A stretch of DNA of 63,215 bases from an uncultured virus (IMG/VR IMGVR_UViG_3300028797_000117) (lineage: Duplodnaviria > Heunggongvirae > Uroviricota > Caudoviricetes). Of the stretch, positions 1,412 to 37,461 are shown piece after piece. Location of the stretch: the IMG/VR virus record IMGVR_UViG_3300028797_000117. The stretch is one strand, 5' to 3'. Position 1 is the stretch's first letter. Every line of letters starts with the position of its first letter. The translations under genes and the position numbers were made by a program. Under the pieces are notes generated by a model. The model was not told the DNA's origin and did no database searches. It saw only the letters and a list, made by a program, of their open reading frames with translations.

Positions 1412-1507
1412 TGGCAGGGGTTGCAGGATTCGAACCCACACCCCGGGTTTTGGAGACCCGTCTCTATGGTTTTGAAGACCACTGTGCTACCGTTACACTA
1501 AACCCCT
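1412..1507 (-). tRNA. tRNA-Trp with two tandem anticodon arms (TCA then CCA); candidate opal-decoding tRNA
   Basis: AGGGGTT/AACCCCT acceptor, G73, CCA; D arm GTGT-AACGGTA-GCAC; arm 1 GTGGT-CTTCAAA-ACCAT; linker AGAGA; arm 2 CGGGT-CTCCAAA-ACCCG; T arm GTGGG-TTCGAAT-CCTGC. Confidence 0.9.
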
Positions 1508-2473: not shown

Positions 2474-3280
2474 TTATTTATGCAATAAATTTCCTATAAA
2501 ATTAATAATAGACATTATAAAATCTCTAATTATATAGGCAACGGGTTTTTTAATTAAATTAATTTCTTCTTCTGTTTGATTAAATTGAAGCATCCAAGCT
2601 TCTGTAATAGGGTATTCATAAGGTAATATAAATGTTCCTTTGTCCCCCCAATCTTCTCCTCAAGAATTTTGAATTAATAAACCGGTTTCATTTCAACCAT
2701 AACATACAAGCGCATGCCCTCCTCCAAATTCAAATTTAGGGATATAAGCAACATAATCTTCATTTAATTCAATATCTCCATTACCATTTACATCTATACA
2801 AATGATAACAGGCGTTTTATTTAAATAAAGAGCTTGTTTGATTTGTTGAATTCCTTTTAAATATGCATAAGCAGTAATTTTATGTTTTTCTGCTTTATTT
2901 TTATATTCTTCAAGATTTTCATCAACTATTTGTTTAGCTTCTTGCATTTCTACATTTTTATTTAAGTCTTTTGTTTCTAAATATCCTACTTTTCTTAAAG
3001 TTTTTAAGGCTTCACTTATATACATCCCTTCTCCTTGATAATAAGATAAAGGTCTATATCCATAAATTCATCCTGTAGAATAATCTATTGAATCATAAGC
3101 TTCTAATATTTCAGATAAACTATGAGCTACACAAGAACAAACTTGTTCTTGGTCTTTTATATGAGAATGTCATAATTCAAAAATATTTGGTAATTGGATA
3201 CTTGAACATATTTTTTTTGAAATTTTATAATTTCTTAAATCAAAAGGTGATTTTAATGCTCCTTTTCCTTTACTTTCCAT
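2474..3280 (-). CDS. papain-like (C1A) cysteine peptidase, TGA=Trp
   Basis: With TGA read as Trp: DLR..., QEQVCSCVAHS (oxyanion Gln, catalytic Cys), GGHALVCYGW (His), IQNSWGEDWG (Asn). Joins track ORFs 3170-3364 and 2693-3025. Confidence 0.9.
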
Positions 3281-3302
3281 AATCAACAACTCCTTAAATA
3301 AA

Positions 3303-3379
3303 TGGTGCGGGTAGAGAGACTCGAACTCCCGACCCCTTGCTTGTAAGGCAAGTGCTCTAACCAACTGAGCTAGACCCGC
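3303..3379 (-). tRNA. tRNA-Val(TAC)
   Basis: CTTGC-CTTACAA-GCAAG, CCA. Confidence 0.95.
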
Positions 3380-10194: not shown

Positions 10195-11292
10195 TTATTT
10201 TCTTGTATAAAAATCTGGTGCACAAACTCCACATTTTATATTATTTTGTTTAATTTCTTCTGGTATTTTATCTCAAATTCGATATATATCTTCTTCATCA
10301 TATGGAATATCATCTAACATTTCTAAAAATTGAATAATATTAGGTTGAGCCATAAAAATTCTATAATTATATTGGCTTTTTCCTAATTCTTGCATATTTT
10401 CTTCATAAGTATTTATAAATTCTGGAGTTGCATAATCTAAATTATATTTTTTTCACAATTTATTATAATATTTTTTTATATATTCAAAATTTTGTTCTTG
10501 AAAAAATTCTTCTCTAGAACTCACATCACAATAAGATATATAAAGAAAAACCATTGTAGATAAAATTTCATTTTTAATAAAGTTTTTATCTAATTTTTGT
10601 TTTTCAGCTCAATCAAATAATTCTATTGCTCCTTCTACAAAACCACAAACTCCCTGATCATAACTATATTGATGATGATTAATTGTTGTAATAGAATCTT
10701 TTGTAGGATATCAACCATAAGTAAAACCATCAACAAAAGGGATTTCTTTTTTTAATTTTGCATAAATAAACATTACTTTTTTATTAAAAAAAGTATCTTC
10801 ATTAGCTCTTTGGTCTGTAAATTTTATATTATATTTTTTTAAAAATTTTCTTTTGTATATTTTTCCAAAAACTCAAACATTATCATTTATATGATGCAAA
10901 TAAGTTTCTATAGGAGTATATTCAATAAAACTACTAAAAACAACATCTTCTTTTTTTCTTTCTATTTCACCTAACAAATCATTAAAAACAAACCCTCCAA
11001 ATAAAACATCATCTGCATCTGCAAACATAATATATGGACAGTTAGTATGATCTATCCCATATTGTCTTGCATACCCGGGGCCTTTATTAACAGGAAGAAT
11101 TATTTCTTGAATATCAAGAACTTCTTTAAAATTTTTAATAATTTCTTCATAAGAACCTTCAGGACAACAATCATTTATTAAAGTAACTTTTACTCATTCA
11201 TTATGAGCTTGCTGAGCTATTGAACATAATAATCTAAAAAGTGTTTTATGTGCTTTATATACAGGTATTATTAAATCAATTTTTTTATCCAT
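10195..11292 (-). CDS. glycosyltransferase family 2, TGA=Trp
   Basis: IDLIIPVYKA, INDC, NKGPGYARQYGI, YIMFADADD; open only if TGA is sense; absent from the ORF track. Confidence 0.85.
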
Positions 11293-11314
11293 TTTTCCTT
11301 TCCTTCTTTCTATA

Positions 11315-12085
11315 TTAATTTATTCCTGGTTTCCAAGTTCCTCCAGATTTTACATCTACTTCATTAGCTACTACTCAGCTACCATTTTTTTTCACATAAC
11401 AAGTCCCAAGTACTCAAGAACCATTAACTTTTACTCATACCTTAGCTCCTAAAGTTTTTCCTGTTACTGTAGTATAAACAAAATCACTTGAATCATCTGT
11501 ATATGAGGTTGCTCTCGATCTGATATAAAAGGTATATGTAGTATTAGGAGTTAATCCTGTAAAAGTTGGACTAGATTGAAAATTAGTATTATCCATACTA
11601 TAACCAATTGATTGAGAAGTAGCTAAATTTAAAGTGTTTTTAGTATTAAAATATTTTCCATTACAAGTGCTAGAATCACTTTTAGTAATTGCAATATTAA
11701 TATATTTACCAGTTCCTGTTGCAACCCCTGAATAAGTTGCACCAACATTTCCTCAAGCATGACGGTCTGCCATAGAAGTCCCTGATTTATTAAAATAAAC
11801 AGTACATTTTTCTCTCGTATGAGCAGTTCCATTAATATTTTGTTTTACATTATTAACAGCACTTGCAGATCAGCTATTATAACTATCAGTTCTTCCTCCT
11901 CTAATTTGACTTATTGTAAAACTTCCTGTAGTAGGCGCAGCAACTGTTGCATTTACAGTAATACTTGTTCTACTATTTGTTGTAGAAACACTAGAAAAAG
12001 AAGGTTTATCTGGAGTAAATTTTCAATTCAAATAAATAAAAAATCTACTATTATTTCCAGATACATTTGTACTTACTGCTGGCAT
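11315..12085 (-). CDS. virion/tail-associated protein with FN3-like domain, TGA=Trp
   Basis: AAAGGAG RBS; TFTGLTPNTTYTFYIRSR FN3-like strand; C-terminal VKVNGSW/VKKNGSW/VKSGGTW repeats. Confidence 0.7.
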
Positions 12086-12192
12086 TTCTATCTCTCCTTT
12101 TTTTTATCTTATAATATAAAATATCCCTTTCTATTTATTAAAAATATAAAAAATATATTAATTATATTAACCCAAAGGAAAAATATAGAAAA

Positions 12193-13326
12193 TTATTTTT
12201 CTCCATCTGTATATACATATCCCTCTTTACCTAATACGCCTGATTTTTCATCAAGTTCTTTAACTCAATCTGGAAGTCTAGTACGGATTTCATCAAATTC
12301 TTCTTTCCCTTTGTATTTATCAGTTTTTATTTTTTCTAAAAATTGGAAAAAAGTTAATTGAGGAATAATTCCTACCATATCCTGAGAATGTCCTGCAAAT
12401 TGCATTGTATACATTGTTTTTAAAACCTTTTCATCTATTTGATCTTCAATTTGTTTATAACAAGAGTGATAAAATCTTTTAGCATTAAAGAAATTTTCTT
12501 CTGCAAACATTGGTTTTTTCTCTAAACATTGAACATATGTAAAATATTGTCCTATCATCATTTCAACAGTAAATCTAGTTATACTACCATTAAAAGGATT
12601 TTTTTTCTTACAAAATTTAATTGCATTTATAGATGCGGCAGTCGCCCCAACTTGGCATAAATCTCAATTATATAACGGTTCTCCTTCATTTTCTTCTATC
12701 CCTATACGCGTTATAGAATGCTCTGAACCCTTACGCCATAAATAAGTTATTTTATCTACTTTATTTATTTTTATAGGAGTTCCTTCAATAGAAAGACGAA
12801 TTTTTCAATTTAATTCTCCATCTTCCATTGCACGTAAATTAGAAAATTTTATATCATTAGATTTTAAAAATTGTAAATTATATAATCTTCCAAAAACCCA
12901 AGGATGCCCTTCATCAGTTCTAGGCATCATACGAATCCCCATAGGGTTAGGATCTACTTCTTGACAAAAAATAGTTTGAACCTCAATACAATCTGGAGTA
13001 ATTCCTTCTTTCATATTTTCAAGAGCCATTGGATCATAAAATACATCGTCTGCATCTATCCAAGTAATCCATTCTGTTTTTGCGGCGTCCGCACATCTTT
13101 GGCGTGCTAAACCTGGTCCTGTGTTTTCTTTACAATCTAAAATTGTTATATCTAAATCAGGAAATCTTTTTTTAACAAAATCATAATTATCAGTTGGATT
13201 ATCTTTTGCTATAATAATTGCAACCTCATTTTTTATTGATTGAATCTGAATTGATGATAAACAATCGCAAATATGAGATTCTGCTTTATATGCAGGAATT
13301 CCTATTGTTATTAATTTTTTTACCAT
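12193..13326 (-). CDS. glycosyltransferase family 2, TGA=Trp
   Basis: ITIGIPAYKA, NTGPGLARQ, WITWIDADD, MEDGELN; joins track ORFs 12805-13326 and 12265-12561. Confidence 0.88.
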
Positions 13327-13380
13327 ATTAAATGCCTCCCTTATAAAATTAGTTTACTTTATTTTTTCTTTTATGTCAAA

Positions 13381-13404
13381 TAAAAAAGAGGCGGATTTCC
13401 GCCT
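13381..13404 (-). terminator. intrinsic terminator
   Basis: AGGCGG-ATTT-CCGCCT hairpin followed by a T run on the minus strand, just after the LRR gene stop. Confidence 0.7.
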
Positions 13405-15933
13405 TTATACAGTCCATCCTGCACTTTGTAATTGCGAAACTAAACTAGCTCCTACAGTTGCAGTGTTTATTATTTTATTACAATTATAAAAAGGACTATT
13501 TACATTTGTATTTTTTAAATTTTTGCTTGTTACATTTGTTGCTGTTAATAAAACTTTTGCAAAATTTGTTAAAGTTGCTGTTGTAAGATTATTACATCCT
13601 AATCAGAAATTATTAATTTGTGTACAGTTCACAAGATTTCAATTTGTTAAATCTACAGATTGTAATTGACGACATCAATAAAATAAGTTTTCCATAGAAG
13701 TAACTTTAGAAACATTTCAATCTGCAAGATTTACAGCTGTTATTTTTTGACATCCATAAAACATTCTTGACATACTTTCAACATTTTTTACTTTTCATCC
13801 TGTTAAATTTAAAGTCGTTAATCAAGTCATAGATTGAAACATATAATCTAATTTTGTAGCATTTATAAAATTCCAATTTTGAAGATTTAATGCTGTAAGA
13901 TTTCCTGACCCAAAAACTCTTTGAGCATAGTTTACGTTTGAAACATCAAAATCCGCTAAATTAAGACTCATTGATTGACGTAAAGAACCAAACATTGCAT
14001 CCATACGCTCTAAATTTTTAGTATTCCAACTTTTTACAAAATTAAAATCCGTTCAATTAGAATGTGCAAAAAGATAATCCATTCTTTTTACATTATTAAC
14101 TTTTCAATTAATAAGATTCATAGCAGGAAGTTCTAAATTATAAAAAATATATCCTAAATCTTCTGCATTACGAGTATCTCAATTTAGAAAATTTATATTA
14201 ATATTAGAAAAGTTTAAATTTTCACTAGATTTAAAAATACCATTAAAATTTTTAATTTTATATAAATTCCCTCATGTTGTTGGAATTATAAGAGTGCTTA
14301 AATTATGACAAGCAGCAAACATTTCACTAATATCAGTAGCATTATTTAAATTTCATTTTATTAAATTCAAAGATGTTAAATGATTACAAAATGCAAATAC
14401 TCCTGCAAGATTATTTACATTATTTAAATTTCAATTATTTACATTTAAAGATGTTAAGCTATAACAGCCATTAAATATACCTGCAAAATTACTTATATTA
14501 GAAGTGTCTCAATCATTTACATTTAACCTTAATAAATTACCACAAGCACGAAAAGCATGTGATGCATCAATAAGATTTTTTGTTCCTCATTTTATATTAT
14601 CAATTTGAGTTAAATTAGTACATTCATGAAACATATGAGAAATATTTGTTACATTATTAATATTTACACTAGAAGGCGCTTGAATATTATTTAATTGAAG
14701 ATCTCAATAAAATGCATAAGATAAATCTTTTACATTAATAAAATTTGCATTTACAATATTTAAAGTTTGTAAATGATTACAATAATTAAAACAACAAGAC
14801 ATATTTGTTACATTATGAGTATTCCAATTATATAAATTAATAGTAGATAAACCATAGCAATAATTGAAAGTTCCATACATATTTGTAACATTGCGAGTAT
14901 CTCAAGCTCCAATATTAAGAGTCGTTAAACCATTACATTTACCAAAAGTATTATATAGATTTTGCAATTGTTCAGTATTTCAAGTTGAAGCATTAAAATC
15001 TGTCATTCTATAACATCAGTAAAACATATTACTCATATTTTGTAATTTTTTTACATTCCAAGTAGAAACATTTATACCAGTAAGATTATAACAATTATAA
15101 AACATTTGACTCATATCATTTACATTAGATACATTTCAATTATTAAGATTAAAAGTTGGAACTTTATAACAATAATAAAAAGTCCCTTTCATATTATTTA
15201 CATTTGTTGTATTTCAATTATTAACATTTAAACTTGTTATATTATAAAGATAAGCAAAAGTATAAGCAAGATTATTTACATTATTTGTAACTCATTTATT
15301 AACATTTAAGCTTGTTAAACTATTACAAAAATAAAATAAATAACTCATATTAATCACTTTTTTAGTATCTCAATTATTTATATTTAAAATAGGGACTTCT
15401 CTACATCTATAAAAAGTCATCCCCAAATTATTTACATTACTTATATTTCAAAATTGAGTATCTATTTTTTTTAAATTATAACAATTATAAAAAAGTCCAT
15501 ATAAAGTTTGAACTTGATTTAAATTTCAACGTGCTGTATAAATATTGTTTAATCCAAAACAATTTGTAAAAGTTATAGAAAAATCTTTCACTTTCCCAGT
15601 ATTTCAACTAGAAGTATCTAAAGTGGTAATATTTGGGCAATCTGAAAATGTTTGTTTAAAATTGGTTACTTGAGAGACATCTCAATTAGAAACATCTATA
15701 TTATTCAAATTTGGGCAGTTATAAAAAGAAGCCCAAAAATTGTTTACTAATCTTAAATCTTTTCCATTTTTTATATTAAATTTTTGTAAATTTGATAAAT
15801 CCATTGCTATTCTATCTAAACTATGAGTAGAAGCAAAATAAGGTAATTTCATTGTAATATTATTTATTGAAGATGAAAAAGGATCAAAACTATCATTATT
15901 CACTCTAAATAAATGACCAAAACTTATCGCCAT
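13405..15933 (-). CDS. BspA/DUF285-type leucine-rich-repeat protein (842 aa), TGA=Trp
   Basis: About 26-aa repeats (L.SLN..NW.T.NV.N....F..C); more than 20 in-frame TGA, many exactly 78 nt apart at the repeat Trp; AGGAGG RBS. Confidence 0.9.
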
Positions 15934-15935
15934 AA

Positions 15936-16898
15936 TTAATTACCTCCTGTGTAAGCAATTTTTATATCTGGACTTTCAACTACTAAACTAGGAGCAAAAT
16001 CCTCGCTTGCATCTATATTTACTAATCGACCTTCAAGATATAAACCATCTGCAAAATTTATAGATTTAACTTGTGAAACATCTCAATCTGTTATTTCATA
16101 ATTGGCTTGAAAAACTTTACAATAACCAGAACCATAAGGGGATTCAAGAGTTCATTCGTCTCCAGAATAATCAACTCCTAATTTAAAATCATCTATATAC
16201 CAAGAAGCTATATTATTTATAAAAAGTTTAATATCTACTTCAACAAGCTCTCCAGGTTGGTAACCTATTGATGCATTTACTGGAGTACTAGTCTCTCTTA
16301 TTGAAATTTTTACTTGAGGAACTACTCTTTCAAAAAATATATTACTTGCATTTAATATACCAGAATCATATACTTCGCTTCCATTAAAATATAAATTATC
16401 AACAACAGTATTATCTGGAAGTATTTCATAACTTTCATCATATTCATCATAATTTAAAAAACTTTTTAAAACAATCTTTGGAGGAATTTGACCCACAATA
16501 TCTCATTGATATACTCCATCTTCATATCTACTTAATGCTAACATTGGATAATGATCTCCATTCCCTGGTATAATTCCAGCTGTACTAGTTGGTGCAGTTG
16601 TACTTCCATAATAAATTCTTAAATCTGTTGCATTTGTTAAAGCTCTTATCCCCGCTAATAATGCACTATAACTATTATATTCTACAGTTTGAAGAGTACT
16701 TTGAGATGTTGTCAAATATTTTAGTACATAATGATCTGGTATTATATAAGTTGCAGCAACTCATTGAGTTCCATCATGAATATAATAAACATCTGTATTT
16801 TTATTTCATAAACAATCTCCTTTTCAATAATAATTTAACATATTTTGTCAATCATAACCAAAAGGAACCGAAGCAAAAGGGATTACTTTTTCATTCAT
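15936..16898 (-). CDS. hypothetical virion-associated protein, TGA=Trp
   Basis: GGGGG RBS, MNEKVIPF start; single frame joining track ORFs 16503-16715 and 16152-16496. Confidence 0.7.
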
Positions 16899-16909
16899 AT
16901 TATTTCCCC

Positions 16910-17674
16910 CTAAGCATTTGTTCCATCATTAGTAATATATAATGTTGCAGTGTTTGAATCAAAACGCATTTTTATTCCACCTACAACATTATAATTAGCA
17001 TTTGGAATCATGTCAGGAAGTTTTCCATCTGTTCTTAAATAATAATTAGTTCCATTATAAAAAGCTATATAAGGTCCTGCAGGTAAAGTATAATTACTAG
17101 AACTGCTTGCAGAACCATTAATATAAATAGGTTTTGCTCCTTGTCCATTAATATTTAAAGTAATTGCACCTGCATATGTATTTGCATATCTAAAATTAAT
17201 ATGAACATAAGAATTAGCTGTTGCAGTATAATAATCCATATCTGCAGTCTTCGCTTGAGTTCCTGCAGCAGTTTTAGATAATGCACTTGTGTAAGTATTA
17301 AAATTTGTGTCTCAATTACATGCTATTCATTCTCAATAAGTTCCAGTATATTGGTAATAAATAATATTTTCTGCATATCCTGTTACTATATATGAACTTC
17401 CTGTATAAGGATGATTAGTATCATAACCTATTGATTTTGCCCCAGACCCATTTACATTTAATGTTACTGAACTTGCACTATTTGTATTAGTAAATTGTAC
17501 TCCAATAATATTACCAGCTTGTAAATTTCATGTAGGGTCAGCAACTACAACTTCTTTTGCCGCAGTTGCTGCTGCGGTTGAACAAGTTCCAAAAGCTATT
17601 TTAGGAGTATTATTATATGAATTTCCTACAACTCTTGAATCACCTGTAACTAAAAGATCTTTTAATTGTGCCAT
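16910..17674 (-). CDS. tail fibre-associated protein, TGA=Trp
   Basis: MAQLKDLLVTG, FGTCSTAAATAAKEV, TLNVNGSGAKSI and TLNINGQGAKPI repeated modules. Confidence 0.75.
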
Positions 17675-17690
17675 ATCCTTTTACCTCCTT

Positions 17691-18338
17691 TTACATTTCA
17701 ATGAAATTGTTTGCATAAACATAACTTTTTCCAATTTTAGAATTTCCTTCTGATTCTGAAAATCCTTGATGAGTTAAATTTGTAATTTTAAAATAATAAA
17801 CTTCAAAAGTCATTCCTGTATTTGCATTATATCCTGTTCTAATATTTGTTGTAGTATTATTTTCTCCTAATTGAATCATTTGAGTTGACCCTTCAGGAGC
17901 AGGAACTGCATCTGGATTGACATTTGAACCTATAATATATGATTTAACAGTTTTTAATGTTGTTGAATTATAATTTGATAACCAATAAGTATTTCATTGA
18001 GATTCCGCATTACTTTGTTTATCTCCTCATTTTTTTGTAGTTGTATTATAAGTATATCTATATGTATTAGTATCTGCTTTAGACCCTATAAAAACTCCTG
18101 AATTATCGCTCAAAACTGTGAAAGCTAAACTAAATTCAATTTGAATAATATCTTCAGGTCCAACAGTAAAAGTTTTTGAAGTTAGTTGAGGACTTTGTCC
18201 TGTTAAAGTAAGAATATTATTAATTATTGAACCACTAACTGTCCAATCTGTTGTAGTATGAGTATCTCCAAAATTATTTACTAAATATGAATTTTCACTA
18301 GGAATACTTGTTCAAACTCCATTTTTATATAAACTCAT
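17691..18338 (-). CDS. tail-associated hypothetical protein, TGA=Trp
   Basis: AAGGAGG RBS, MSLYKNGVW; C-terminal YANNFIEM. Confidence 0.7.
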
Positions 18339-18340
18339 AA

Positions 18341-20086
18341 TTATTCCTCCTTGAATTCATATGCATAAATATTGTTCTTATTATCTATTATACCACTATT
18401 TTTATACATTGTCAAAACATCATTTGCAGATAACGCAGTAGCATAAACGCGGAAATCACTTATTGAACCATTAAATTGATGTCCACTTTGGCGGCCTCCA
18501 ATATCTAAAGTACTATTAGCATATACAGTTCCATCTGTTGCTACTTGACTTTGATAAACTCCATTAACATATAAACTTAATGTTTTAGCAACACTATCAT
18601 GAACAAGAACAATATGTTGTCATGTGTTATCAGTACAACTTCAAGTCCCTACTGATGCACTTCCGCTAGCAGGATAAATAAAATATCTAGCATTTTCTAA
18701 ACATATCGAAGTATTATAACTTTCTTTACTTGCGTAATAAGTTGTCCCACTTTGTCTATTAAATCAACCGCTAATAGTAAAATCTTTAGATGCTGCTAAT
18801 ACAGCTCCTGCAGGTGAATCTAATAAAGCATTAGTCCCAAAAAGAATACTATTTTCATATCTAGGAGTGTCTTTATTAAGAGTTAAAGTCCCTATCTTAG
18901 TAGCTGAATAATTATTTCCACTAACATCTGTTGTTAAACTTTCATTTCAATTATAAGAATAAGGAACTCAATCAGTAGCTTCTTGTCCTAATTCAAATTT
19001 AAAATTACGTAAATATCAAGTTGTAGGTTCTGTATCTGACATAGTTCTTAATCCTATTTTTGAACTTTCATATAAATCTGTACTTGTAGTATTACTAGCA
19101 TTAGCATTTTTAGAACCAAAAACACATTTAGTTCAAACTCCAGCGGGAATAGTTTTAGTATTAGTTAAACGGACGCTTGTTAAATCATTATCATTTCCGC
19201 TTGGATTCCATTGAGAAATATCATTAGAATAATTATTATAATCTACTACTAATACATGTTCAGTAGGGACATATACTTCAAAAGAAAACCTATAAAAAGA
19301 ATTATAAGGAACTATACATTTTTGTGTAGACCCAATATTAACTCCATACCCTCAAGTACTATCTCCTACAGGGGAAACTATTGTATATGTATGAGTGTTT
19401 GAATTAAAAGTAATAGAAGATGCTCCTGCATTAACTAAAAGATTATCTATCGCTAAATTATTATTTATACTGTGTCCCCCTAATTTATAATGACAAATTA
19501 AGCCCTTACTAATTTCTTTAATTTGTTTTTGACTTAAACATTCATCATAAATTCTTAAATCATTCATGCCTCCAACCATATTATTAGTTTCTCCAATATG
19601 GAAATAATTATTAATATATCCACCTAAACCGACATCTGTATAAGTTAATACGCCATCTATATAAGTATAACAATATTCTCCATCATAACTAAAACCACAA
19701 TGATGTCATTCCCCTTTTTGTTCTTCTGTAATTAAAATTCTACTACCTTGAGTAATAGCATATGGGGTATTATTATGAAATGAACAGGCCCTTGTTGTTT
19801 TTGTTGCTTCAAATCTAAAAGGCGAGGCACTTGTACCATCTGCTTGAACAGATGTAAAACTTAATGAATCTGCTCAATCTGAAGAACAACTATCCACTTT
19901 TAATCAAAATAAAATTGTAAAATTATCCATTTTTGGAAGACCAGTAAAACTAACTCTTGGAGTTAAACTAATACATTTTCCAATTTTCCCATTATCTAAA
20001 AAAGTAGGCGTACCACTTGGAATAATTGTACTTAAACCTTTATTTTCTAAATTACCATTAAGAGGTAACCAAACACGTAAAGCCAT
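18341..20086 (-). CDS. LamG/concanavalin-A-like lectin tail protein, TGA=Trp
   Basis: MALRVWLPLNGNL, WHHCGF, YIDG, MNDLRIYD.CLS, second LamG domain FNGSISDFRVYATALS; joins track ORFs 19904-20167 and 19352-19579. Confidence 0.85.
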
Positions 20087-20099
20087 GTTTAATCGCCTC

Positions 20100-21839
20100 C
20101 TAACTAAATACAAACTCAATACATTTATCCGTTGAGTTATATTGCATTGTTGCTGAAGTCCCACCAACTTGAACTGATTTTGTAGTTAATACTCCACTAG
20201 TTGTATACACTTCATTATCAGAATATGTTTGTGGGTTTGCAGCTTGACTTGTTGCACCAATTAAATATATTTTACTTGATATATCAGTTGAACCTGCAGT
20301 ATTTTTAGTATCTGTATAGCATCCACTAGGAATTGTTCCACTTAATTTTGTAGCGTCAAGAGTTGAACTCGATGTTAATGGGGTAATTGTATTGCTTCCT
20401 AAAGTAATAATTCCACTTGCAATTTTTGCATCTGTAATTCCATAACCGCTTATTGTTGTTGGATTAGTCCCCTCTGTAACATGGCCTGTTGCATTAACTG
20501 TAACAGATCTATATGTTCCTGCGGTAACTCCAGAGTTTGCATGTGATAAAGTACGAGTACCACTACTTGTAATTGCTGTATTATCATCAATAGCAATAGG
20601 ACTAGTAGCATTTAAAGTAATACTTGTTACAGTTCCACTTGGTTCATCTCCTGATGGAATTAAAACCCAAGAACTACCATCACTAATAAAAGTATCCCCA
20701 ATTTTTGCAGTTTGAGAAGCATAAGTCCCAGCTGTAATAACTTTATATGTAAAACCTTCATTACTCGCGGCGGCTGTTGGTAAACTAGTTATAGTTCCTC
20801 CTGTACCTAAAGAACCTTTAAAAATCATTGGTTCTGGTAAAGCAGTAATAGCTCCATCTACATAAGCAGTAGTTGCAACTTTAGTAGAATTATCTCCACT
20901 TGATTGAGTTGTTGCAGTAACTCCATTTGCAATAGCTCCCGATAAAATTGAAGCTGGTACTGAAGTAATATTTGCTACTCCACTTGTTGCAACTGAAGTT
21001 CCATTTACAGATACTCCTGTAATAGTACCTGTTCCTTTCCCCGCAGCTAAATCATAAGCAACCTTTACAGCTTTTGGAGTTGCCGCTAATACTTCACTTG
21101 TGCTATCAGTAGCACTACTTAATTTAGTTACTCCATAGGCGCTTGTACTGGCGGCAGGTATGTTTGCTGTTCCACTACTTGCTACATCAGTTCCATTTGC
21201 TTGAACTTTTGTAATTGTTCCAACTGAAACATTCCCAGTCCCCGTTATAGTATTATTATTAATTGTCTTAATTGATTGATGAGAAGTCAAAACTGTTCCT
21301 AAATCTACAACTCCACTAGTTCCTTTACTCGCTCCGTTCATAGTAATTCCAGTTATAGTACCAGTATTTGTTGTGTATCCTTTTCCTTCTACAAAACTTG
21401 CAACAGCTTGAGAGGTTGGAAGTTTTGATGATGTACTTGCTGAAGAAATTGTTGTTGCTATATCATTTCCAATAAGAGAAATACCTTTATAAATTTCAGA
21501 AGAAATATCATCATGATAAGATATTCAATATTCATATTGAGATCCTACCATTTCTCTTTCAATTGTAAAATATCAATTATCATCTAATCTTAATATTTGT
21601 TTTTTATCATTATTTCAATCCCCAACAGAAAGGGTTCAAAAAGAATTTAATTCTCAAAGGTCTTCTCCAATGACTATATTTCCTTTTATTTTATAAAATC
21701 CTGCTGATAAAGTATTTAAATTTATAGCTTCTTGAGAAGTCCCTGTAAGTTCTGTAATTTGTTTTTGACCACTACCACCTAAAACACGCCATTCATCATC
21801 TTTATATATATATTGTGTATAATTTTTCATTTGTGTCAT
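20100..21839 (-). CDS. tail fibre protein, TGA=Trp in N-terminal part
   Basis: ASTSAYGVTKLSSATDSTSEVLAATPKAVK fibre repeat, DNSTKVATTAYV, HANSGVTAGTY; continuous frame through the TGAs between 21341 and 21654. Confidence 0.85.
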
Positions 21840-21854
21840 CCTTTTATCTCCTTT

Positions 21855-23507
21855 CTATGTTAAAGTATGTGTATTACTATAAACATCATTCATTATATGT
21901 TCTCATTGAGAAGCTGCTCCCCATCTTCCGCTAAGGTCTCCAGTTTTTGGAGTTCTATATACTTCAATTTTGTATTGATATCTTATATCAGTAGTAGCTT
22001 CTCAATAAGTTTGAGTATAATAAGTAGTGCTACCTCTTATATTTAAAACAGGAGTTTTTAAAGTTAAAGTAGTTCCAGAATAAGAAGGCGCAGTTACTGA
22101 TTGATAACAACCATAAGATGCACTAGTATAGGCAGATGCTGTAGTAGCAGTACTTCAATATGAACATCTATGAAAAGATCCTACTGCAATCAATGAAGCT
22201 GTACGAGAAGTATAATATTTAGTTGGATCTACTAAAGTATGAATTGTATTTGCTTCTAAATCAGCTAATTCATATAAACAAGATGAAGCCATCCACTCAA
22301 ATCTTCCCTTCGCAGTAGTTGTTGTATTATAAACAGGTATTGTAAGCATTCTTATTAAAACAAAATAATTATAAGTTGCTAAATCTAAAGAAACTGTATC
22401 AGTTAAAGTTTCACTTGCTTTTAATGGTGAAGCAGTAGTTGTATAAGCAGGGATTGATACTTTTTCGTCGTCAACTATATACTTATCATAACTAACTGTT
22501 TTTATTAATTCTGCATCTGGTCTTAAAACACCAAATTTTAATGGATTACTTCCTCCTCCAGAATATGTTCCAGTGACTCCAAAAATAGAAGTTCCAGATT
22601 TTATATTCCCTGCAACTAAATTAGCATCTCCGCTAATAGTTTGATTTCCTGTTAAATAAGTCCCTGAAGCAATAGTTTGATCTGTTGTTCCAGGAGTAAT
22701 TGTATCTGCAGCCTTAGTTGTTACTGAAGCTGTTAATGAAACATCACTATTTCCTGCGGTTCCTGAACTAATATATCCTGCAGTAACACTAGGTGTTACA
22801 CTAACAGTTTTAGATAACGTTAAAGTATTTGTTCCTGAGGTTACAGTAGCAGAAGATCCACTAATTGTAGCAGGCGCCGTTGCCGTTCCACTTGAAATAG
22901 TTTTTGTTGCATCAGAACTATAATATCCTGCTGGTGCTGTCACAGTAGCTCCAGAAGCAGATAAGCTTGAAGAATTTCTTGTATTAATAGAAGCTGTTAA
23001 ACTTACAGAACTATTACCGGCAGTACCTGAACTAATATACCCAGCTGTTGTTACATTTGGAGTAACAGATATTGTTTTTGATAAAGTTAATGTATTAGTT
23101 CCAGTGCTAACTGAAGCAGAAGTTCCTGAAATAGAGCTTGGTGCTGTTACAGAACCAGAACTAATAGATGTTGTAGCTTCATTTGCATAATATCCTGCAG
23201 GCGCCGTTACTGTAGCCCCGTTTATTGCTAAATCTGTACTAGATTTTCTAGCAACCCCGCTTCCAACATAAGAAGAACTAATTGCATTAACCGTTACTTT
23301 TGATAAGGCGTCATAAGTAGGTGAATCTGCAGTTACTTCAATAGAAGATTCACTTGGAGAAACTGTTTTACTTTGATAAGTTCCTCCTCCTGTTGGGATT
23401 GCTTGTATTGCACTAGGCATTTGCGCAGGAGTATAAACATCAGAACTTCCATTTTTACTCCTGATTGCATCTGCTATATTTGTAAAAGTTTCTGTTAATG
23501 TTGTCAT
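21855..23507 (-). CDS. tail fibre-like Ser/Thr/Gly-rich protein, TGA=Trp at C-terminus
   Basis: IADAIRSKNG, TITPGTTDQTIASGTYLTGNQTI.GDANL..GNIKSG.SIFGV.G; internal duplicated repeat. Confidence 0.8.
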
Positions 23508-29550: not shown

Positions 29551-30114
29551 ATGGAAAACAAAATTTGGTTTACTAGTGACCCTCATTTTGGGCATCAAAA
29601 AGAATTTCTTTGGGGTCCAAGAGGATTTAATTCTAGCCTAGAACATGATGAAGTAATTATCCAAAATTGGAATTCAGTTGTGGATTATGAAGATGATGTA
29701 TATGTTCTTGGGGATTTTATGCTAGGCGATAATAAATATGGTATTAAATGTATTAACCGCCTTGCAGGAAAAATTCATCTTGTATTAGGAAACCATGATA
29801 CTGAATCAAGAGTGGAACTATATAAGAATTGCGGCAACATCGTAGAAATTATTTATGCAAAAGAAATTAAAATTGGTAAAAACTATTTTTTCATTTGTCA
29901 CTATCCTGTGATTACCGCAAACTATGATGACCAAAAAGCATGGGCTAAACATCTGATTAATCTCCATGGTCATACACACTCAAGAGAAAAGTTCTACAAT
30001 AATAATCCTTATATGTATAATGTAGGATTAGATTCTCATAATAATTTTCCTATTGAAATTAATGAAATTATTAATGATATTAGAGAGAAAAAGATACAAC
30101 TTGATAAAGAATAA
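29551..30114 (+). CDS. calcineurin-like metallophosphoesterase
   Basis: SDPHFGH, LGDF, GNHD, CHYP, LHGHTH, NVG.D. Confidence 0.9.
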   Translation: MENKIWFTSDPHFGHQKEFLWGPRGFNSSLEHDEVIIQNWNSVVDYEDDVYVLGDFMLGDNKYGIKCINRLAGKIHLVLGNHDTESRVELYKNCGNIVEIIYAKEIKIGKNYFFICHYPVITANYDDQKAWAKHLINLHGHTHSREKFYNNNPYMYNVGLDSHNNFPIEINEIINDIREKKIQLDKE

Positions 30115-35532: not shown

Positions 35533-37461
35533 ATGATAGATAAAGAATTAACTGAGATAAGAAATTTAATTGATAAGTTAAATTATTATACAAAGAAATA
35601 TGATGAAGGTAAACCTGAAATATCAGACCAAGAATGGGATGATATGTATTTTGCGTTACAGAATTTAGAAAACAAATATCATACTTATTGTGAAGATAGT
35701 CCTACTCAAAAAATAGATTATCAAGTTGTTAATAAACTTAATAAAGTAGAACATAATCACCCTATGCTTTCTCTTGACAAAACAAAAGAAATAGATACAA
35801 TTCAATCATTTATTGGTGGCCGCGATTATGTTGCTATGGCTAAAATGGATGGATTAACTTGCTCCCTTCGTTATTTAAACGGTAAACTTGTATCTGCGGA
35901 AACTCGCGGAAATGGAATAATAGGAGAAGATATTTTACATAATGCTTTACAAGTTAAAAATATTCCTAATAAAATTAGTTTTAAAAATGAATTAATTATA
36001 GATGGAGAAATAATTTGTACTTATGATGATTTTGAACCTTTTGAAGCTGAATATAAAAATCCTAGAAATTTCGCTTCTGGTAGTATAAGATTATTAGATA
36101 GTAAAGAAAGCGCTATGAGAAGATTAAGTTTTGTAGCGTGGGATGTTATTAAAGGTTTAGAAAATGAGCAAGATACTTTAATAGGAAAATTAGAAACTAT
36201 TGCTGAATTAGGTTTTACAGTAGTTCCTATGTATTTTGGTTCATCAGATATACAAAATGTTATAGAACAAATTCAATTAAAATCAAAAGCATTAAGTTAT
36301 CCTATTGATGGAGTGGTCTTTAAGTTGAATCAATGCGATGAATATAATGCTGCGGGAAGAACAGACCATCACTTTAAAGGCGGAATGGCTTATAAATTCT
36401 ATGATGAAGAATATGAAACTACTCTTCAAAATATAGAATGGACTATGGGTAGAACAGGAGTTTTAACTCCAGTTGCTATTTTTGATACAATTGATATTGA
36501 TGGTTCTGAAGTTTCAAGAGCAAGTTTACATAATGTCAGTGTTATGACTGAAGTATTAGGTCAGCCATATAAAGGACAAAAGATAAAAGTTTTTAAAGCA
36601 AATATGATTATACCTCAAGTTTCTTGGGGTGAGAAAAAACCTCTAACTATTTCAGATTTTAGATGTGAGGTTTGTCCTATATGCGGCGGAGCTACTCGTC
36701 TTAATGATAATGATGGAGTAGTTACCTTAATATGCGGCAATCCGCAATGTGAAGGTAAATTGATAAACCGCCTAGACCATTTTTGTGGTAATAAGGGACT
36801 TGATATTAAAGGGCTTTCAAAGGCAACTCTCGAAAAGCTGATAAACTGGGGCTGGATTTCTAATTATATAGATATATATAAATTAGAAACCAAGTCAAAC
36901 AAATGGAAAACAAAACCAGGTTTTGGTGAAAAATCTGTGGAGAGGATCTTGAAAGCCATTGAGGATAGCAAGCATCCATCATTAGACGCAGTTATTGCGG
37001 CAGCAGGCATTCCATTAATTGGTAGAACTGTTGCAAAAGAATTAGTAAAATATATAGATACTTATGAAGATTTTAGGTATAAAATTGAATCAGGTTTTGA
37101 CTTTACACAATATGATGGATTCGGTGAAACAATGGCCGCCGCATTATACGATTTTGACTACAAAGAAATTGATGATGTAGTTGATTATGCTCTTGATATA
37201 CAGAGTAAAAAGGTAGAAGAAAGTAATAATAAATTAGAAGGATTAACATTTTGCGTAACAGGTAAAGTTCATATTTATAAAAATAGAGATGAATTAAAAG
37301 CAGATATAGAAAGCAAGGGCGGAAAAGTAGTTAGCTCTATGAGTAGTAAAGTAAATTATTTAGTAAATAATGATATAACATCTACAAGTTCTAAAAACCT
37401 AGCTGCTAAACAAGCAAATATCCCAATTATTACTGAAGAAGAATTGCAATCAATGTTTTAA
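35533..37461 (+). CDS. ligA: NAD-dependent DNA ligase
   Basis: MLSLDK, KMDGL, TRGNG..GED, NPRNFASGS, DGVVFK, GRTG.LTP, Zn finger, HhH, BRCT. Confidence 0.95.
   Translation: MIDKELTEIRNLIDKLNYYTKKYDEGKPEISDQEWDDMYFALQNLENKYHTYCEDSPTQKIDYQVVNKLNKVEHNHPMLSLDKTKEIDTIQSFIGGRDYVAMAKMDGLTCSLRYLNGKLVSAETRGNGIIGEDILHNALQVKNIPNKISFKNELIIDGEIICTYDDFEPFEAEYKNPRNFASGSIRLLDSKESAMRRLSFVAWDVIKGLENEQDTLIGKLETIAELGFTVVPMYFGSSDIQNVIEQIQLKSKALSYPIDGVVFKLNQCDEYNAAGRTDHHFKGGMAYKFYDEEYETTLQNIEWTMGRTGVLTPVAIFDTIDIDGSEVSRASLHNVSVMTEVLGQPYKGQKIKVFKANMIIPQVSWGEKKPLTISDFRCEVCPICGGATRLNDNDGVVTLICGNPQCEGKLINRLDHFCGNKGLDIKGLSKATLEKLINWGWISNYIDIYKLETKSNKWKTKPGFGEKSVERILKAIEDSKHPSLDAVIAAAGIPLIGRTVAKELVKYIDTYEDFRYKIESGFDFTQYDGFGETMAAALYDFDYKEIDDVVDYALDIQSKKVEESNNKLEGLTFCVTGKVHIYKNRDELKADIESKGGKVVSSMSSKVNYLVNNDITSTSSKNLAAKQANIPIITEEELQSMF

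Follow-up and report, generated by a model that had tools for sequence, protein, structure and literature searches.

How the enzymes of a standard-code host come to charge the suppressor tRNAs of recoded phages is called an open question by Borges et al., in the principal survey of these phages (bioRxiv 10.1101/2021.08.26.457843), and one gene in the DNA analysed here raises it in concrete form. This DNA, hereafter the window, is a stretch of 63,215 nucleotides from an uncultured rumen virus of the Caudoviricetes (IMG/VR record IMGVR_UViG_3300028797_000117), with 29.8% G+C and 19 tRNA genes. On its minus strand, at positions 1412–1507, lies a 96-nt tRNA gene with a tRNA-Trp-type body and an encoded CCA end, supported by ARAGORN, by the Rfam tRNA model and by the sequence itself, which carries two anticodon arms in tandem: a first with the anticodon UCA, in the decoding position, and a second, spare arm with the anticodon CCA. 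Why would a phage tRNA keep both? Our comparison of relatives within one phage family suggests that the inserted amino acid follows the spare loop, and not the decoding anticodon, and on this comparative evidence we consider it probable that the tryptophanyl-tRNA synthetase (TrpRS) of the host takes its anticodon identity element from the spare arm.

The gene folds into five helices, exactly as a sequence-only reading of the locus had described, with the UCA arm preceding the CCA arm. The 5′ strand of the acceptor stem, AGGGGUU (1501–1507; this and all further window features are on the minus strand), pairs with AACCCCU at 1416–1422 over 7 bp, including A1-U72, G2-C71, G3-C70, G4-C69 and G5-C68, and the gene ends in the discriminator G73 and the encoded CCA, read directly from the sequence (1412–1415). 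The D arm, GUGU-AACGGUA-GCAC, has a 4-bp stem and a 7-nt loop (1484–1498) and leads through A26 at 1483 into arm 1, GUGGU-CUUCAAA-ACCAU (1466–1482), in which UCA (1473–1475) occupies the canonical anticodon position. The linker AGAGA (1461–1465), which is 3–7 nt long and purine-rich in homologues, separates arm 1 from arm 2, CGGGU-CUCCAAA-ACCCG (1444–1460), with its CCA at 1451–1453, in the position of a class II variable arm. A 3′ linker, GGGU (1440–1443), matches the nucleotides that an ordinary variable loop has ahead of the T stem (N-G-G-U), and the T arm, GUGGG-UUCGAAU-CCUGC (1423–1439), is 100% paired in the homologue alignment described below. The Rfam tRNA model (RF00005) matches the gene over its full length (model positions 1–71) with 58.3 bits, compared with a gathering threshold of 29, and places arm 2 within a 23-nt variable-region insertion. 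The five-helix cloverleaf, to which arm 2 contributes about −7.9 kcal/mol, has an energy of −28.8 kcal/mol, compared with −30.9 kcal/mol for the minimum-free-energy structure, which is a different fold; single-sequence folding of the two-arm tRNA is not distinct from that of shuffled sequences (z −0.62).

The identity elements of tRNA-Trp are the anticodon, G73 and the 1-72 pair, according to a review (PMC9976931). The two-arm tRNA has G73, A1-U72 and the pairs G2-C71, G3-C70, G4-C69 and G5-C68 of the bacterial tRNA-Trp identity set; these last four are B. subtilis tRNA-Trp determinants and vary in some homologues. The remaining element of the set, C34-C35-A36, is absent from the decoding arm, which reads U34-C35-A36, and CCA is found in the spare arm only. 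The phage also has an ordinary tRNA-Trp(CCA), encoded at 1917–1991 (ARAGORN, Rfam), whose anticodon arm, CUGGU-CUCCAAA-ACCAG, has a loop identical in every letter to that of the spare arm; this gene is no recent copy of the two-arm gene.

That the phage needs UGA to mean Trp, as the sequence-only reading had it, is confirmed by several of its genes. A block of late and tail-fibre genes (10195–23507) is open only with TGA as a sense codon, and the cover of open reading frames (ORFs) in the 10–15 kb bin rises from 0.44 to 0.99 once TGA is so read. One client gene in this block, at 13405–15933, encodes a DUF285/BspA-like repeat protein with 26 in-frame TGA and 6 TGG codons, and in its 26-residue repeat about 19 TGA and 4 TGG codons, read by eye, fall in one conserved Trp column. 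A papain-like peptidase has a TGA where two solved proteases, 3ois and 2bdz, have the W of the papain-family NSWG motif. Comparison with a related phage genome, G001, places a TGA of the anaerobic ribonucleotide reductase gene nrdD opposite TGG and a TGA of a GIY-YIG protein gene opposite TAG; a codon tally between the two genomes has two or three usable positions, the rest being swamped by antisense ORFs. Searches of the Protein Data Bank with stop codons entered as X were uninformative for the transglycosylase and for the endolysin and GIY-YIG protein of G001. For other relatives we tallied codons against one common reference set: 79 related loci from the region of the portal gene. G001 and five late-region stretches of genomes G002–G006 were added to it for two relatives with a UCA + CCA tRNA. 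In the first of these (L188), the cells aligned to TGA positions hold TGG in 569 of 1546 cases and TGA in 215; in the second (L183) they hold TGG in 636 of 1666 and TGA in 212. G004, G005 and L184 gave no usable tally, with too few alignments or too few recoded positions.

ARAGORN labels the 96-nt gene tRNA-SeC(tca), its sole tca tRNA in the window, in keeping with the earlier statement that no other intact UCA tRNA is present there. Taken at face value, the label would place it among the class II tRNAs of selenocysteine or serine type, to be charged through the long arm by SerRS, and the UCA anticodon, the long extra arm and G73 are all what such a tRNA would have. Yet in tRNA-Sec the acceptor and T stems together make a helix of 13 bp (8/5 in bacteria), the D stem has 6 bp and a loop of 4 nt, and the reading of UGA depends on a SECIS element. 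The acceptor and T stems found here, of 7 and 5 bp, and the D stem of 4 bp with a 7-nt loop are not Sec geometry, and the TGA codons fall at Trp columns and opposite TGG, not at Ser, Sec or Cys, which refutes either identity; we give it practically no probability. What the window tRNA shares with class II tRNAs (Ser, Leu, bacterial Tyr and Sec) is an extra helix between the anticodon and T arms. It differs from them in the 5-bp stem and 7-nt anticodon-like loop of that helix, in the 4–7 unpaired nucleotides on its 5′ side, in its Trp-type body and in its amino acid, Trp.

Two-arm relatives with covarying stems, for which the sequence-only reading had suggested a search, are indeed present in other phages. 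A first pattern, made of the two loops and the T loop, matched 30 viral contigs, 24 of which hold real two-arm tRNAs. An unbiased scan, in which only the D arm and the UCA loop were fixed and the variable region was left unconstrained, returned 52 loci: 35 with a variable region of 25–28 nt, 16 with a loop of 4–7 nt and one chance match. All 35 long variable regions are hairpins with a 7-nt loop of the form N-U-C-C-A-A/U-A. The distinct two-arm homologues in public viral contigs (n = 34) align well, with 98.6% of pair cells paired and changes on both sides in 21 of 26 pairs; none of 500 shuffles matched these values, and slid controls pair at 38–49%. Both arms covary. Arm 1 is 98.8% paired, with double-sided changes in 4 of its 5 pairs; the stem of arm 2 likewise has double-sided changes in 4 of 5 pairs; the acceptor helix is 99.6% paired and changed on both sides in 7 of 7; the D arm is nearly invariant. 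A1-U72 is kept in 31 of the 34.

Against this background of changing stems, U33′, C34′, C35′ and A36′ of the spare loop are each present in 34/34 distinct sequences. Position 32′ varies between C (23 sequences) and G (11 sequences), and G at position 32 is unusual for a decoding loop. The 3′ linker is also conserved, its N-G-G-U nucleotides being G in 31/34, G in 33/34 and U in 33/34. Since U-CCA is invariant while four of the five stem pairs change on both sides, selection appears to act on the spare loop rather than on the spare stem. The same observations bear on the notion that the spare arm is left over from a tandem duplication of the anticodon arm, neutral and without function. Such a duplication predicts that both halves of the gene match ordinary tRNA-Trp genes, as they do; compensatory divergence of the stem around an invariant U-CCA-A in 34 sequences, and the recurrence of the same design with glutamine loops (below), nevertheless make a relic very improbable.

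The assembly of the locus was checked on Logan contigs of sequencing runs. One 347-nt contig from a run of another study (X5) spans 1167–1513 with four differences, and in runs X1 and X3 exact contigs covering 1000–1459 and 1434–2400 overlap across the two-arm gene. These bridging contigs, together with the 34 distinct covarying versions, bear out the earlier judgement that no assembly slip is involved. A second variant at window positions 1464 and 1467 (C>T and T>C) co-occurs in X1 and X3 and matches the ACCGU-AAAGA arm-1/linker sequence of other contigs, implying that related phages with a two-arm tRNA of their own share these samples. The contigs of one metatranscriptome run (X24) do not cover 1376–1516 and are silent on expression or processing.

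None of 50,697 GenBank phage records covers at least 80% of the two-arm tRNA. Its parts are more familiar: nucleotides 6–39, comprising the D arm and arm 1, align at about 91% to the 5′ halves of ordinary phage tRNA-Trp genes, and nucleotides 50–96, comprising arm 2, GGGU, the T arm and the acceptor strand, align as one block to tRNA-Trp(CCA) 3′ halves at 81–88%. Since both halves match ordinary phage tRNA-Trp genes, the two-arm gene looks like a tRNA-Trp with a tandem-duplicated anticodon stem-loop. Its two possible readings are a tRNA(UCA) whose variable arm is long and a tRNA-Trp(CCA) into which a hairpin of 22 nt has been inserted behind position 26; the canonical 5′ junction (A26) belongs to arm 1 and the canonical 3′ junction (N-G-G-U) to arm 2.

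Two further explanations were considered. The tRNA might be two-headed, presenting either arm to the ribosome and reading UGA by arm 1 and UGG by arm 2; both arms indeed have a 5-bp stem and a 7-nt loop with U33 and A37, and a five-way junction permits the two cloverleaf readings. The phage, however, has a separate tRNA-Trp(CCA), and a UCA anticodon already wobbles to UGG in code 4 systems. Position 32′ is G in 11 of 34 homologues, the spare stems of the glutamine type have only 3–4 bp, and the charging problem would be left unsolved, so that we regard a two-headed tRNA as quite improbable. The sequence-only reading had also offered a second proposal, in which a precursor is processed into one of two tRNAs and thereby times the code switch. 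Apart from the two arms themselves, we found no support for it. The order of the arms is fixed, none of nine scan matches with the CCA arm first being a real tRNA, and both linkers are conserved, including the N-G-G-U core nucleotides. We know of no bacterial splicing or excision of a 22-nt hairpin from a five-way junction, and we give this proposal very little credence.

If the spare loop names the amino acid, the meaning of a recoded codon could be predicted from the tRNA, and this rule led to a phage lineage with another code. A scan with the arm-1 anticodon left free recovered 35 UCA tRNAs and a single tRNA whose arm 1 has CUA and whose arm-2 loop is GUCCAAA. The latter lies at 10262–10354 of G001 (L129/L252; loci L136–L143), a 146-kb genome estimated as 93% complete, whose amino-acid identity to the window phage is 65% for DNA polymerase, 68% for NrdD and 59–71% for the topoisomerase subunits. 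The two-arm CUA + CCA gene is the sole cta tRNA of G001 and adjoins an ordinary tRNA-Trp; no gene of the TrpRS/TyrRS family was found in this genome, whose lineage occurs in bovine-gut samples. The genome is TAG-recoded (ORF cover rises from 0.83 to 0.94), and TGG is almost absent from its TAG-rich late genes. In the common reference set, the 1001 cells aligned to its TAG positions hold 643 TGG, 64 TGA, 24 TAG and about 140 Tyr or Phe codons; glutamine codons are outside the 12 commonest listed, and TGG is the majority codon at 19 of 26 positions. As controls, the genome's own TGG positions hold TGG in 898 of 1413 cells and its own Gln positions hold CAA/CAG in 5523 of 10552. Three fragments from other samples, about 68% identical to G001, behave alike, with TGG at TAG positions in 661/978 (L147), 616/995 (L166) and 387/731 (L167) cells. 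We conclude from these alignments that G001 reads TAG as Trp. Among 29 scan matches in viral contigs, G001 is the only CUA + CCA tRNA; a second, divergent one is carried by a 144.6-kb metagenome contig (L344), which is outside the TAG = Trp tallies.

A tRNA-Trp body with a CUA anticodon would not by itself lead one to expect Trp, since E. coli tRNA-Trp carrying CUA is charged with Gln (PMC9976931). The E. coli su+7-type amber suppressor, described in the same review, resembles the phage tRNAs in having a tRNA-Trp body with a stop-codon anticodon, and there the anticodon decides between Trp and Gln; it is single-armed, whereas G001 combines TAG = Trp with a CUA decoder and a CCA spare arm. The phage reports located in our literature searches have TAG only as Gln, and Borges et al. 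observed only TAG to Gln and TGA to Trp, with charging by host enzymes as a hypothesis. A code in which UAG means Trp is described for the plastid of the Balanophoraceae, parasitic plants; G001 shares the reassignment, in a phage rather than a plastid.

The design recurs with glutamine loops. In a family of amber suppressor tRNAs (loci L254–L274 and L282–L314), the variable arm is a small hairpin with the tRNA-Gln loop CUCUGAA or CUUUGAA, and a scan for CUA in arm 1 with a Gln-type loop in arm 2 gave 24 matches, 14 of them real tRNAs. Fixing the amber decoding arm only, we obtained 34 loci: 23 with a long arm and an N-Y-YUG-A-N loop, one with CCA (G001) and 10 short, with no long arm bearing an unrelated loop among them. 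The Gln-type spare stems have only 3–4 bp, and the Gln-type 1-72 pair is mostly weak or mismatched, whereas that of the Trp type is A-U or G-U with G2-C71 and G3-C70. Five genomes with the Gln-type tRNA belong to the family of the window phage and have 3–10 in-frame TAG codons in the portal gene. Against the same 79 loci, the TAG positions of G002, G003 and G006 hold CAA/CAG in 35%, 28% and 36% of cells, and most of the other cells hold codons for Lys, Glu, Asn and other polar residues, a profile equal to that of their own Gln positions; TGG is outside the top ten codons. G003 is complete, and its single cta tRNA is the two-arm gene, at 37355–37447.

Within one phage family, then, UCA + CCA goes with TGA = Trp, CUA + CCA with TAG = Trp and CUA + CUG with TAG = Gln. 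In the mechanism that we propose, the phage opal suppressor would derive from a tRNA-Trp body by tandem duplication of the anticodon stem-loop. The first copy, in the canonical position, would have mutated to UCA and would read UGA, and probably UGG, on the ribosome; the second, in the variable-arm position, would retain the tRNA-Trp loop U33-C-C-A-A37 and serve, jointly with G73, A1-U72 and the G2–G5 acceptor pairs, as an identity element for host TrpRS. The spare arm would then specify the amino acid, and the decoding arm the codon. TrpRS might reach the spare loop in either of two ways. Alternative stacking in the five-way junction could put the spare arm in the place of the anticodon arm, or the spare arm could be placed next to the anticodon-binding domain of this dimeric class Ic synthetase. 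The latter placement would suit such enzymes, which bind tRNA from the variable-arm side.

Charging probably relies on the host enzyme. A search with PF00579, the TrpRS/TyrRS family, found no match in any of 11 genomes with two-arm UCA or CUA/CCA tRNAs, seven of them at least 90% complete, and the control search matched in 14/14 reference genomes. The family scan of the window covered 34 ORFs, and the window phage's own genome may hold a TrpRS elsewhere. Since the anticodon is a TrpRS identity element, the residue tracks the spare loop and no phage TrpRS was found in these genomes, a host synthetase that reads the spare arm is the simplest account. We think it somewhat better than even that this generalises to a class of modular tRNAs in recoding phages, in which a host synthetase recognises the amino acid by a spare cognate loop (CCA for Trp, CUG/UUG for Gln), the other loop serves on the ribosome, and a change of the decoding loop from UCA to CUA, in relatives of the window phage, gave the TAG = Trp code. 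With identity placed on the spare loop, the decoding loop would be free to change.

Several observations weigh against this account. An ordinary short variable loop is found in 16 of 51 family members, so the arm is not indispensable. No TrpRS was found in five records with a single-arm UCA tRNA, one of them at least 90% complete; the expected pairing of single-arm UCA tRNAs with a phage TrpRS was not borne out. One phage (G014; L324–L334) is complete at 213 kb and TGA-recoded, has only a single-arm tRNA(UCA) and no TrpRS; that tRNA and other tRNAs lie at 30014–30087 and 82956–83123. Borges et al. cite opal suppressors that are tryptophanylated in E. coli. The contact between the synthetase and arm 2 is one that we infer from comparison, and the comparison of the three classes is not isogenic: acceptor ends differ between the Trp and Gln types as well, and identity could reside partly or wholly in the acceptor end. 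In class II tRNAs of canonical fold, the loop of the variable arm is far from the anticodon, the spare stems of the Gln type are only 3–4 bp long, and GlnRS and GluRS are monomers. The evidence for TAG = Trp comes from one near-complete genome and three fragments that are not tied to a tRNA. With single-arm UCA tRNAs present in a recoded phage that has no TrpRS, the spare arm is probably an enhancer of charging rather than a necessity. The earlier proposal of host TrpRS charging through the CCA arm is thus the best supported of those considered, by the invariant loop, the 0/11 genomes with TrpRS and the residue that tracks the spare loop, and it does not extend to a requirement, as the single-arm G014 illustrates.

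The same points lend some weight to a different explanation, in which the spare arm is selected for another role, such as factor binding, protection, tuning of the interaction with the ribosome or EF-Tu, or stability of the fold, and identity resides in the acceptor end and discriminator. The acceptor ends of the Trp and Gln classes do differ, UCA tRNAs with one arm work in a recoded phage that has no TrpRS, and arm 2 adds the fold energy given above. Under such a role it would be hard to see why the loop is always cognate to the residue, with CCA for Trp in 35/35 and YUG for Gln in 23/24 long arms, and Trp from a CUA decoder with a CCA spare loop would go unexplained. We therefore regard another role as unlikely, if worth keeping in mind. 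Two further observations concern the single-arm tRNAs. In G014 a tRNA-Trp(cca) of 82 nt adjoins another tRNA of the same length, whose anticodon we leave unassigned. L045 and the cultured Lactococcus garvieae phages PLgW-1, PLgY-16 and PLgY-30 (matches H27–H29) carry, in an unannotated stretch, a single-arm form that matches the D arm and UCA arm of the two-arm tRNA family.

Full-text literature searches returned no natural tRNA with the two-arm design. The earlier statement that the architecture was undescribed thus held for natural tRNAs, and an engineered analogue exists. Mukai 2020 (PMC7590224) equipped the V-arm of amber suppressors with a hairpin bearing a GUG pseudo-anticodon, and this raised histidylation by HisRS variants with an extra anticodon-binding domain. 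These allo-tRNAs resemble the window tRNA in combining a suppressor anticodon in the anticodon arm with a hairpin bearing the cognate anticodon in the variable arm. As reported there, the design is synthetic, uses His and GUG, required HisRS fused to a second anticodon-binding domain, and has only a modest effect; the phage two-arm tRNAs are natural, have Trp or Gln loops and would need unmodified host enzymes. Recognition of anticodon-like nucleotides on a non-canonical scaffold is also described for the synthetases that bind the thrS operator and the Tyr-type tRNA-like structure of BMV, TLS-Tyr (PMC9976931); these are regulatory or replicative RNAs, not elongator tRNAs that decode by another loop. 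Also close are the tRNA(UCA) genes of the code 4 gut and rumen phages of Borges et al., which are likewise phage-borne, serve TGA-recoded late genes and are presumed to be charged by host TrpRS; the passages of that preprint consulted here do not describe a two-arm architecture.

Only 35% of code 4 phages had a TGA suppressor in the survey of Borges et al., who suspect that non-canonical tRNAs are involved. If our reading is true, it would explain why tRNA finders label such genes tRNA-SeC or tRNA-Pyl, or miss them, and would bear on this low rate of detection. A spare cognate arm would also answer, simply and generally, how standard-code hosts charge recoded-phage suppressors. It would amount to a natural uncoupling of tRNA identity from decoding, which is an aim of synthetic biologists, and the two-arm design could give compact, host-charged suppressor scaffolds for genetic code expansion.

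Some variants of the design were also noted. Five contigs binned in bacterial metagenome-assembled genomes (MAGs) carry a two-arm tRNA; they are short, and we draw no conclusion about hosts from them. In one MAG contig (L133) the spare loop is closed by a C-C mismatch, giving a 9-nt loop (C-UUCCAAA-C) in which U-CCA is kept. At a contig end (L240) we found the 3′ part of a tRNA with the spare arm GUGGA-UUCCAAA-UCCAC and a CUCUAAA loop, with no tRNA-like 5′ half upstream; this tRNA may be split or intron-containing.

Around the two-arm gene, a terminator-like hairpin, ACAGC-AGCA-GCUGU followed by UUUAUAUAUA, lies at 1389–1402, 10 nt 3′ of the tRNA (consensus scan only), and a 140-aa open frame (1506–1928) with no PHROG or Pfam match lies between the tRNA-Trp(CCA) and the two-arm tRNA. 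A weak, degenerate and very AT-rich tRNA-like element at 750–807 has a CUUCAAA (UCA) loop and a good T arm; its D arm and acceptor are unconvincing, it scores 30.5 bits over part of the Rfam model, and ARAGORN does not call it. At 1–43 a tRNA gene is truncated by the window edge (Rfam 34.6 bits, model positions 1–42). The replication module of the window encodes DNA polymerase III alpha, gyrase/topoisomerase, NAD ligase, DnaB, RecJ and the anaerobic NrdD. The open frame of the papain-like peptidase (2474–3364) runs upstream into a tRNA-Val gene (3303–3379); its start is probably an internal Met, the long ORF being an artefact of mechanical ORF listing.

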